Part shown: one piece after another, positions 43,804-44,790 of the stretch
Position numbering within the stretch: position 1 is the first letter of the stretch
Layout: each line of letters begins with the position of its first letter
NCBI RefSeq assembly: GCF_013167455.1
Contig: NZ_CP038328.1
Origin: Escherichia coli O157:H7
Lineage (GTDB): Bacteria > Pseudomonadota > Gammaproteobacteria > Enterobacterales > Enterobacteriaceae
DNA length: 64,000 nucleotides
Strand: one strand, 5' to 3'
Notes under the pieces: model-generated
What the model was told of the DNA's origin: nothing
What the model saw: the letters and a program-made list of their open reading frames with translations, nothing else
Database searches by the model: none
Position numbers and translations under genes: made by a program

Positions 43804-43854
43804 TTGCAAAGTTTGCCCCCAATTTGCCCCATTTAGTACCAGAGAACCGAAATA

Positions 43855-44790
43855 ATGCAAGAAAATCAAAAGAATACGAAGAAAGAACAATACAACCTGA
43901 ACAAATTACAAAAACGCCTGCGTCGTAACGTGGGCGAAGCCATTGCTGACTTCAATATGATTGAAGAAGGCGATCGCATCATGGTTTGCCTCTCCGGGGG
44001 TAAAGACAGCTATACCATGCTGGAGATTCTGCGCAATTTGCAGCAAAGCGCGCCAATCAATTTTTCGCTGGTGGCTGTTAACCTCGATCAAAAGCAACCG
44101 GGCTTCCCGGAACACGTTCTGCCCGAGTATCTTGAAAAGCTGGGCGTTGAGTACAAGATTGTTGAAGAGAACACTTACGGTATCGTGAAAGAGAAGATTC
44201 CAGAGGGCAAAACCACTTGCTCACTGTGTTCTCGGCTACGTCGCGGTATCCTTTATCGCACCGCAACGGAACTGGGGGCGACGAAGATCGCGTTGGGCCA
44301 CCATCGTGACGATATCCTGCAAACGTTGTTCTTAAATATGTTCTACGGCGGCAAGATGAAAGGTATGCCTCCGAAACTGATGAGCGATGATGGCAAACAT
44401 ATCGTTATTCGTCCGCTGGCCTACTGCCGCGAGAAAGATATTCAGCGATTTGCCGATGCAAAAGCGTTCCCGATTATTCCGTGCAACCTGTGCGGTTCAC
44501 AGCCTAACCTGCAACGTCAGGTGATTGCTGACATGTTGCGTGACTGGGATAAACGTTATCCAGGGCGTATCGAGACGATGTTCAGCGCGATGCAGAATGT
44601 GGTGCCGTCGCATCTGTGCGATACCAACCTGTTCGATTTCAAAGGCATCACCCACGGTTCTGAAGTGGTTAACGGGGGTGATCTGGCGTTTGATCGCGAA
44701 GAGATCCCACTACAACCGGCGGGCTGGCAGCCAGAAGAAGATGAAAATCAGTTGGATGAGTTACGGCTGAATGTGGTTGAAGTGAAATAA
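43855..44790 (+). CDS. ttcA: tRNA 2-thiocytidine synthase TtcA
   Basis: 311 aa with PP-loop SGGKDS and CxxC motifs. Confidence 0.9.
43879..43904. other. Candidate Rac attachment-site core inside the 5' end of ttcA
   Basis: aagaaagaacaatacaacctgaacaa is the reverse complement of the 26-bp Rac att core as I recall it; not verified. Confidence 0.35.

Follow-up and report, generated by a model that had tools for sequence, protein, structure and literature searches.

We examined a 64,000-nucleotide stretch of Escherichia coli O157:H7 DNA (contig NZ_CP038328.1 of assembly GCF_013167455.1; hereafter the window), in which the integrase end of a Rac-family prophage meets the host gene ttcA. On the plus strand, xisR (42351..42566) encodes an excisionase, recognised by its Pfam domain (DUF1233, putative excisionase) and identical to K-12 XisR at 71 of 71 residues. 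It is followed by intR (42568..43803), whose 411-codon open reading frame (ORF) encodes a tyrosine integrase with an arm-binding domain, as judged from Pfam (Arm-DNA-bind_2, PF12167, 6e-26; Phage_integrase, PF00589, 5e-23) and from identity with K-12 IntR at 405 of 411 residues; both recombinase genes are intact. The gene ttcA itself, which encodes a tRNA 2-thiocytidine synthetase (43855..44790, plus strand, 311 codons; assigned from the ORF, its PP-loop domain and RefSeq), starts 51 bp past the intR stop codon. Its codons 9–17 hold the 26-mer AAGAAAGAACAATACAACCTGAACAA (43879..43904, plus strand), which begins 75 bp past the intR stop and is the sole match in the window at up to three mismatches, with none expected by chance. 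The interval 43804..43910, whose first base directly follows the intR stop, comprises the integrase-proximal att arm, this core and six bases of host ttcA. The 2.5 kb around the core recur at 100% identity in many E. coli O157:H7 chromosomes, with the RefSeq gene labels xisR, intR, ttcA and dbpA.

The 26-mer is already known: Rac-family prophages have it as their attachment-site repeat, at the beginning of ttcA. K-12 MG1655 carries 26/26 identical copies on the opposite strand of its record, one in ttcA (1425..1400 of extract L002) and one in the ttcC pseudogene (24485..24460 of the same extract), and these form an exact direct repeat at both ends of Rac, with flanks that diverge at once on either side. 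The annotated K-12 Rac feature (1411899..1434958, 23,060 bp) spans exactly one copy of the 26-mer, and induced Rac excision removes 23,060 bp, the core-to-core distance (PMC11014345). Rac has been placed between ttcA and ttcC' with imperfect attL and attR, and its excision alters the TtcA N-terminus (Liu et al. 2015, PMC4632033). The integration site of Rac in ttcA with IntR and XisR, the presence of Sp10/CP-933R at the same site and a 26-bp attP and attB in GenBank had all been described already. The original prediction, which matched 43879..43904 in reverse complement to the Rac core, was right on this point, with 26/26 agreement against both K-12 end repeats; its proposal of a candidate att core within the first ttcA codons is borne out by the K-12 repeats as well as by the divergence boundary, empty site, attP and GenBank annotation described below.

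Phage and host sequence part company at this block. When the window was compared with Sakai over 39884..50411, every difference lay to the left of the core, the last of them at 43870..43878, and none was found in the 80 nt to its right or in any 500-nt bin from 44000 to 50411. Comparison of attL, attR, attB and attP showed that the phage-side and uspF-side flanks switch exactly at the core edges. We built the predicted empty site by joining the 400 bp on the uspF side that run up to and include the core to the 400 bp of ttcA past it, and this matched prophage-free O157:H7 chromosomes at 100% identity over all 800 bp, a natural attB. Across 5,426 complete E. coli genomes, a contiguous uspF-ttcA empty site was present in 2,486 and the intR-ttcA junction in 1,858; 227 genomes match the window at attL with at least 99% identity. 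A natural attP was read in O157:H7 F6294 (L015 3190..3500), in which tandem Rac-like prophages are joined exactly at the 26-mer by an intact, contiguous attP that runs from the intR stop through two TTTGCCCC repeats, a phage copy of ttcA codons 1–8 and the 26-mer into the distal phage arm. The left flank of this attP is Sp10-type, and the tandem junction agrees with published work in which Sp10, once transduced into K-12, inserted in tandem at the Rac attR (PMC2669165). The reconstructed attP was covered to at least 80% in 15 genomes, and a contiguous attP-type junction was found in fifteen genomes in all; the window-type attP occurs as a contiguous junction in no genome of the collection, the contiguous attPs found being Sp10-type or diverged remnants. 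Finally, the GenBank record of phage Rac-SA53 (KU052037.1) carries 26-bp misc_recomb features named 'attP' and 'attB' at precisely these positions.

The 26-mer might instead be merely conserved ttcA coding sequence without meaning as a boundary, the true recombination site of the phage lying elsewhere. It does lie in the ttcA reading frame, and the reconstructed empty site that contains it is found at 100% in prophage-free genomes, so that its presence in ttcA is to be expected with or without an integrated prophage. That explanation is nevertheless effectively refuted by the junction comparisons, in which phage-specific and host-specific sequence meet exactly at the edges of the 26-mer in attL, attR, attB and attP, as well as being at odds with the published core-to-core excision of Rac (PMC11014345), and we give it almost no chance of being correct. 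A Rac-family lambdoid prophage has integrated in the 5' end of ttcA, and the interval 43804..43904 is its attL junction, with the 26-bp identity block common to attL, attR, attB and attP of Rac-family phages as its core.

Two further observations concern attP. In APEC O1 (L018 2470..3100), a truncated integrase is followed by a contiguous, ~87%-identical attP located ~2 kb from uspF. A phage record (ON470595.1, vB_EcoS-683R6) was considered as a source of free-phage attP and dropped, being a prophage prediction that includes full-length ttcA and dbpA.

IntR is expected to recombine the phage attP with the host attB inside the identity block, which measures 26 bp for this phage, K-12 Rac and Sp10. 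A natural variant suggests a narrower site of exchange. The intR-side (attL) core copy of Rac-SA53 reads AAGAAAGAGATATACAACCTGAACAA, with phage-type GAT at core positions 9–11, and its uspF-side (attR) copy is the host-type 26-mer, with ACA at these positions. Because sequence to the left of the exchange point at attL derives from the phage, and GAT is found on attL only, exchange should have taken place to the right of positions 9–11. Strand exchange thus most likely falls within the right-hand 15 bp, ATACAACCTGAACAA (43890..43904, plus strand), a segment that is invariant in five attP-type sequences, two of them observed and three reconstructed. A point against this narrowing is that it draws on a single variant phage, whose three clustered substitutions are assumed to have come in with attP and not to have arisen after integration. 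Inspection of the core by eye, with no systematic analysis, revealed a direct GAACAA repeat at positions 7–12 and 21–26 only and no clear dyad. A search of the window with the 15-mer at up to two mismatches returned a single additional site, a 13/15 match (AAACAACCTGAACCA, 39923..39937) inside recE, in direct orientation and 4 kb from the core. With ~0.15 such matches expected per window, this probably arose by chance, and it could conceivably act as a secondary site.

As a consequence of this junction, the ttcA gene of the window is a chimera, made up of phage codons 1–8, the core and host sequence from 43905. The phage-supplied start ATGCAAGAAAATCAAAAGAATACG encodes MQENQKNT, and the native start ATGTCGCAAAATCAAGAAATTAGC, encoding MSQNQEIS, lies displaced on the uspF side. 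Integration would accordingly leave ttcA intact with a phage-encoded N-terminus, the phage carrying an imperfect copy of codons 1–8 to the left of the core, and would displace the native ttcA start and promoter to the far prophage end, beside uspF. Four TtcA residue changes upon Rac excision were reported by Liu et al. 2015 (PMC4632033), and a 2023 paper in Nucleic Acids Research (NAR) singles out just Q6E and T8S, from three base changes. Our alignment of K-12 attL with attR shows four changes (Q2S, E3Q, Q6E and T8S) and seven base differences, and five changes for the phage of the window. Precise excision here would alter five residues as against four in K-12 because phage codons 6–8 read KNT in place of QIT. 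A scan of 43400..44000 for promoters and terminators detected no sigma-70-like promoter and no intrinsic-terminator-like site between intR and ttcA; in the lysogen, ttcA may be transcribed by read-through from intR or from a non-consensus promoter in the phage arm.

The arm between the intR stop and the core (43804..43878, plus strand), the equivalent of the lambda P' arm, is phage-specific and unlike the native uspF-side sequence, and includes the phage-supplied replacement for the ttcA ribosome-binding region together with codons 1–8. It contains two direct TTTGCCCC repeats 11 bp apart (43812..43819 and 43823..43830, plus strand), which we consider candidate arm-type sites for IntR. The motif has three matches in the 64-kb window, two of them in this 75-bp spacer, and three to four more copies are present at +105..+140 beyond the core in the distal arm of attR in K-12, Sakai, MB9-1 and ECP19-598. 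K-12, Sakai, SA53 and F6294 all retain the spacer pair, and in a comparison of five attP-type sequences both clusters stay conserved amid drifting surroundings. The TTTGCCCC repeats are good candidates for arm-type sites because they are clustered and conserved on both arms and because IntR has an arm-binding domain; the count across the whole window argues the other way, with three found and 3.8 expected, and they are put forward here as candidates. Adjoining the core is a sequence resembling the consensus for integration host factor (IHF), AATCAAAAGAATA (43864..43876, plus strand), which is one mismatch from WATCAANNNNTTR and has one more mismatch than its K-12 equivalent, AATCAACAAATTA. An IHF binding peak in K-12 maps to a consensus adjoining the ttcA start codon beside the Rac attL (PMC8407004), and the window site is predicted to bind IHF as well. 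In the distal arm, a conserved TTTTTCAATNNGTTA block is also IHF-consensus-like. Both the TTTGCCCC repeats on the two arms and the IHF-like site by the core would be probable accessory sites, as in lambda, these roles being read from the sequence.

To the left of the core, the prophage body occupies the window as far as it reaches (1..43904, minus strand), and is collinear with O157:H7 strain ECP19-598 at 99.91% over 1..50000. Its content comprises int, xis, recET, kilR, immunity, replication, lysis, head and tail genes and NleG effectors, and its distal end lies ~1.5 kb beyond base 1 of the window. Identity with Sp10 was considered and rejected, as only 39884..43878 (98.6%) and a 2-kb block of the lysis region (21888..24055) resemble Sakai Sp10. 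The prophage, a diverged relative of Sp10, is neither Rac nor Sp10; it is a separate member of the Rac family, 45 kb long, and has only the int-xis-recET end in common with these two. Compared with ECP19-598, the window shows 44 differences, most of them in 24299..27265, a lysis/antirepressor region common to several O157:H7 lambdoid prophages, a pattern that suggests gene conversion among resident prophages and not point mutation.

The partner of the core was next sought in the window and among its relatives. No second 26-mer is present in the window at up to three mismatches, and seeds of at least 10 nt shared between 43780..43960 and the rest of the window are short and at chance level only. 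We then compared the strands of the attL and attR junctions in genomes sharing the window attL at 100%, seven close relatives being scorable for orientation. In MB9-1, 17B6-2, SS TX 754-1 and HB6, the cores are direct repeats 45,353 bp apart, a spacing that would put the partner copy ~1.47 kb to the left of window base 1, and in SS TX 313-1 they are direct repeats ~56 kb apart. In ECP19-598 and G5295, the cores lie on opposite strands, ~231 kb apart. The ECP19-598 copy that corresponds to the window is at 2714535..2714560 on the minus strand and the second at 2945509..2945534 on the plus strand, directly past uspF and a ttcC'-type start, leading into the tail end of another lambdoid prophage. 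The ttcA-linked prophage of this strain ends in nleG genes, a DinI-like gene and a truncated ydfJ, beyond which ydfI, rspR, dcp, mar and lsr are arranged in an order opposite to that of K-12. The gene order of both strains is ttcA, prophage, ydfJ', ydfI ... lsr ... ompN, uspF, prophage, compared with ttcA, prophage, uspF in Sakai and K-12, G5295 agreeing with ECP19-598 both in geometry and in its ydfJ' junction. In K-12, ydfJ is the integration site of Qin (PMC6379469), and at this Qin-type distal junction (L001 4800..4975, corresponding to 2759799..2759974 of the ECP19-598 record; K-12 L012 3278..3286) the phage-host join reads GAATTATGGATTTC / CAGTTATATTCGC in ECP19-598 as in K-12, with GAATTATGGATTTC marking the boundary. 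This arrangement was rejected as a general one for O157:H7: Sakai, EDL933 and MB9-1 are canonical, the ttcA-linked prophage of Sakai and EDL933 (Sp10 / CP-933R, 51 kb) lying between ttcA and uspF with direct repeats.

Two observations on these relatives stand apart. Just inside the Qin-type phage arm are GGGGCA / GGGACA motifs that resemble the reverse complement of the Rac-type TTTGCCCC repeats, which hints that Rac-type and Qin-type integrases recognise related arm-type motifs. In addition, the tandem prophage pair of ECP19-598 beyond uspF ends with an intact integrase by ompW, followed by yciC, tonB and opp (L005 40588..42402; record 3040588..3042402). Since these genes map near 1.31 Mb in K-12, ECP19-598 carries at least one further large rearrangement with a prophage endpoint.

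Which of these arrangements the genome of the window has can be judged from the alleles at the distal side of the prophage. The window and canonical MB9-1 are nearly the same sequence between ~6000 and 46074, but only 93–97% identical over 1..5900. This distal module (1..5900, minus strand; the 3' part of gpJ, lom, tail fibre and nleG genes), which allele comparison assigns to a ydfJ-linked prophage, differs in its allele set from the remainder of the element. It adjoins ~6 kb of tail genes (6000..11900; the 5' part of gpJ, tail assembly and part of the tape-measure gene), which a second prophage carries inverted and in near-identical form. Over 6000..11900, ~10 differences separate the window from the uspF-linked prophage of ECP19-598 (record 2950704..2958880), which lies in the opposite chromosomal orientation; this inverted homology is the probable substrate of an inversion. 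Taken together, the two segments are the trace left when two lambdoid prophages exchanged sequence reciprocally. Window bases 1..5879 show zero differences from the ydfJ'-linked module of ECP19-598, and 1..2296 are 100% identical to G5295. In the whole collection, the best matches to 1..25000 are G5295 and ECP19-598, both at 99.9% and both of the inverted type. At the edge of the divergent module, 5880..5907 hold four differences from ECP19-598; the exchange point in the lineage of the window may differ slightly from that of ECP19-598, through recurrent inversions or later conversion.

From this allele linkage, we infer the rearranged structure of the window's own genome; for the relatives ECP19-598 and G5295, the inverted flanking markers with endpoints inside prophages are established directly. 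A Rac-type attL in ttcA whose partner was separated from it by a prophage inversion is, in our judgement, very likely to be the correct explanation of the whole, and the odds are strongly in favour of a distal prophage end that is not a ttcA-type attR. In this lineage, a prophage-mediated inversion of the chromosome has probably moved the partner core ~231 kb off and reversed its orientation. Several points weigh against this explanation. Five of the seven scorable relatives have the canonical direct arrangement, no genome of the collection is 100% identical to the window (99.9% at best), and the window stops ~1.5 kb short of the distal end, so that the arrangement of its source is deduced from linked alleles. 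Moreover, FRIK1989, the third-best match (99.7% over 1..25000, with a single difference over 1..3111), has the same distal module in a third arrangement, joined to the site-specific integrase end of another prophage, which shows that the module moves around.

Two other arrangements accordingly have to be weighed. The window could come from a canonical lysogen, with a direct 26-mer ~1.47 kb beyond its left edge by ttcC'/uspF and an excisable element of 45.35 kb. The four relatives with the 45,353-bp spacing are 100% identical to the window at the intR-ttcA junction, SS TX 313-1 also has direct repeats, and the near-identity with MB9-1 beyond ~6000 fits equally; we nonetheless consider this unlikely, because the distal module is only 93–97% identical to the uspF-linked module of canonical genomes, is indistinguishable from that of ECP19-598 with G5295 equally close, and in every examined genome that has it (ECP19-598, G5295 and FRIK1989) continues to a DinI-like gene and a non-ttcA junction. 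Alternatively, the distal end could abut the integrase end of a further lambdoid prophage as in FRIK1989, in which the module runs into just such an integrase, with the partner 26-mer located elsewhere. The similarity to FRIK1989 speaks for this, yet the two genomes that are closer still to the window (99.9%) each have the ydfJ' junction, which makes such an arrangement very unlikely.

The inversion explanation also bears on a second expectation of the original prediction, that another copy of the core would lie outside the window, at the other prophage end, and define the element boundaries, and that the lack of a copy within about 60 kb would count against the core. The partner does lie outside the window, and its position at the other prophage end, marking the boundary, holds only in the canonical relatives. 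In the genome of the window there is probably no copy within ~60 kb, and the core nevertheless stands, because a later inversion by homologous recombination between two lambdoid prophages would have moved its partner away.

According to the mechanism that we propose, excision would need IntR and XisR acting on attL and a directly repeated attR. Experiments in K-12 showed that XisR promotes Rac excision and binds attR (PMC4632033), and excision and circularisation, packaging, and integration at the Rac attR were shown experimentally for Sp10 (PMC2669165). Excision of the IntR/XisR type is published for K-12 Rac (PMC4632033, PMC11014345) and for Sp10 (PMC2669165), not for this phage. IntR and XisR would free a 45.35-kb circle from a canonical lysogen, with the ancestral ttcA re-formed behind it. 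Recombination across the ~6 kb of near-identical tail genes with an oppositely oriented ydfJ prophage would have inverted the intervening chromosome, in keeping with the prophage-flanked inversions documented for O157:H7 in PMC8991562, which cites Iguchi et al. 2006. After such an inversion, the prophage would run from the attL in ttcA to a Qin-type junction in ydfJ, with its partner attR ~231 kb off and inverted. Because its ends are then mismatched, a Rac-type attL at one and a Qin-type junction at the other, the element is probably unable to excise precisely despite its intact intR, xisR and attL.

In the rearranged genomes, IntR and XisR acting on the inverted attL and attR could instead flip the 231-kb terminus-proximal segment in a single step, which we regard as quite unlikely, and as speculation because no genome of the collection carries the window-type attP junction that the flip would create. 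If it did occur, an ancestral ttcA with its native promoter and N-terminus would be restored beside uspF, and the two hybrid prophages would be fused head to tail across a regenerated attP. The result would be a condition-dependent recombinase switch between two chromosome structures, on top of the known O157:H7 inversions by homologous recombination; the dependence on conditions would follow from the regulation of K-12 xisR by RpoS, as reported in PMC4632033.

The core biology, the altered TtcA N-terminus and the prophage-mediated inversions of O157:H7 are already known, and the present analysis makes small additions to them: the narrowing to 15 bp, the candidate arm sites and a clear case of an att pair split by a prophage-prophage inversion. 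For annotation, it fixes one boundary of a 45-kb prophage carrying nleG effectors and identifies a ttcA with a phage-encoded N-terminus, and the 15-bp segment and candidate arm sites offer concrete targets for IntR biochemistry. It also calls for caution in calling prophage boundaries, since a search for a second att site within a phage-sized distance fails once recombination between prophages has reshuffled their ends. A prophage can in this way be stranded even though it appears complete and its int, xis and attL are intact, which bears on predictions of nleG mobility in O157:H7.

Compared with known systems, the window is closest at this junction to K-12 Rac, whose attL and attR in ttcA/ttcC' have the identical 26-bp repeat at the same ttcA codons, with IntR and XisR 99% and 100% identical, the same two TTTGCCCC repeats in the P' arm, and a ttcA N-terminus likewise replaced by the phage. 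The window prophage differs from K-12 Rac in being 45 kb long and apparently complete, whereas the latter is a 23-kb remnant, as well as in codons 6–8 (KNT versus QIT), in one extra mismatch in the IHF-like site and in a partner attR that is probably not at the other end of the element. Rac-SA53 (KU052037.1) has its annotated site at the same position and of the same length, with identical phage ttcA codons 1–8, but its attL differs at core positions 9–11 (GAT versus ACA), which shortens the identity between attP and attB to 15 bp. Sp10 of Sakai and CP-933R of EDL933 share the integration site and the 26-mer, and their attR junction beside uspF is identical (100% over 1.6 kb); Sp10, however, is 51.2 kb long, has head and tail genes of a different type and is flanked by its cores as direct repeats. 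In lambda, Int, Xis and IHF act on attP and attB through a 15-bp common core with a 7-bp overlap and arm-type sites. The window resembles lambda in its tyrosine integrase with a separate arm-binding domain, the adjacent excisionase and the position of int beside one arm, and, as predicted here, in arm motifs that recur to either side of a short common core, with an IHF consensus beside it. Its core and arm sequences are unrelated to those of lambda, and its target lies inside a coding region for which the phage supplies a replacement N-terminus. Lastly, the O157:H7 prophage inversions of Iguchi et al. 2006, as cited in PMC8991562, are like those of ECP19-598 and G5295 in having endpoints in oppositely oriented lambdoid prophages near the terminus, in producing reciprocal hybrid prophages and in being polymorphic among close relatives. 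The inversion in ECP19-598 and G5295 is of the same kind, and involves here the ttcA-linked and ydfJ-linked prophages, separating a matched attL/attR pair.

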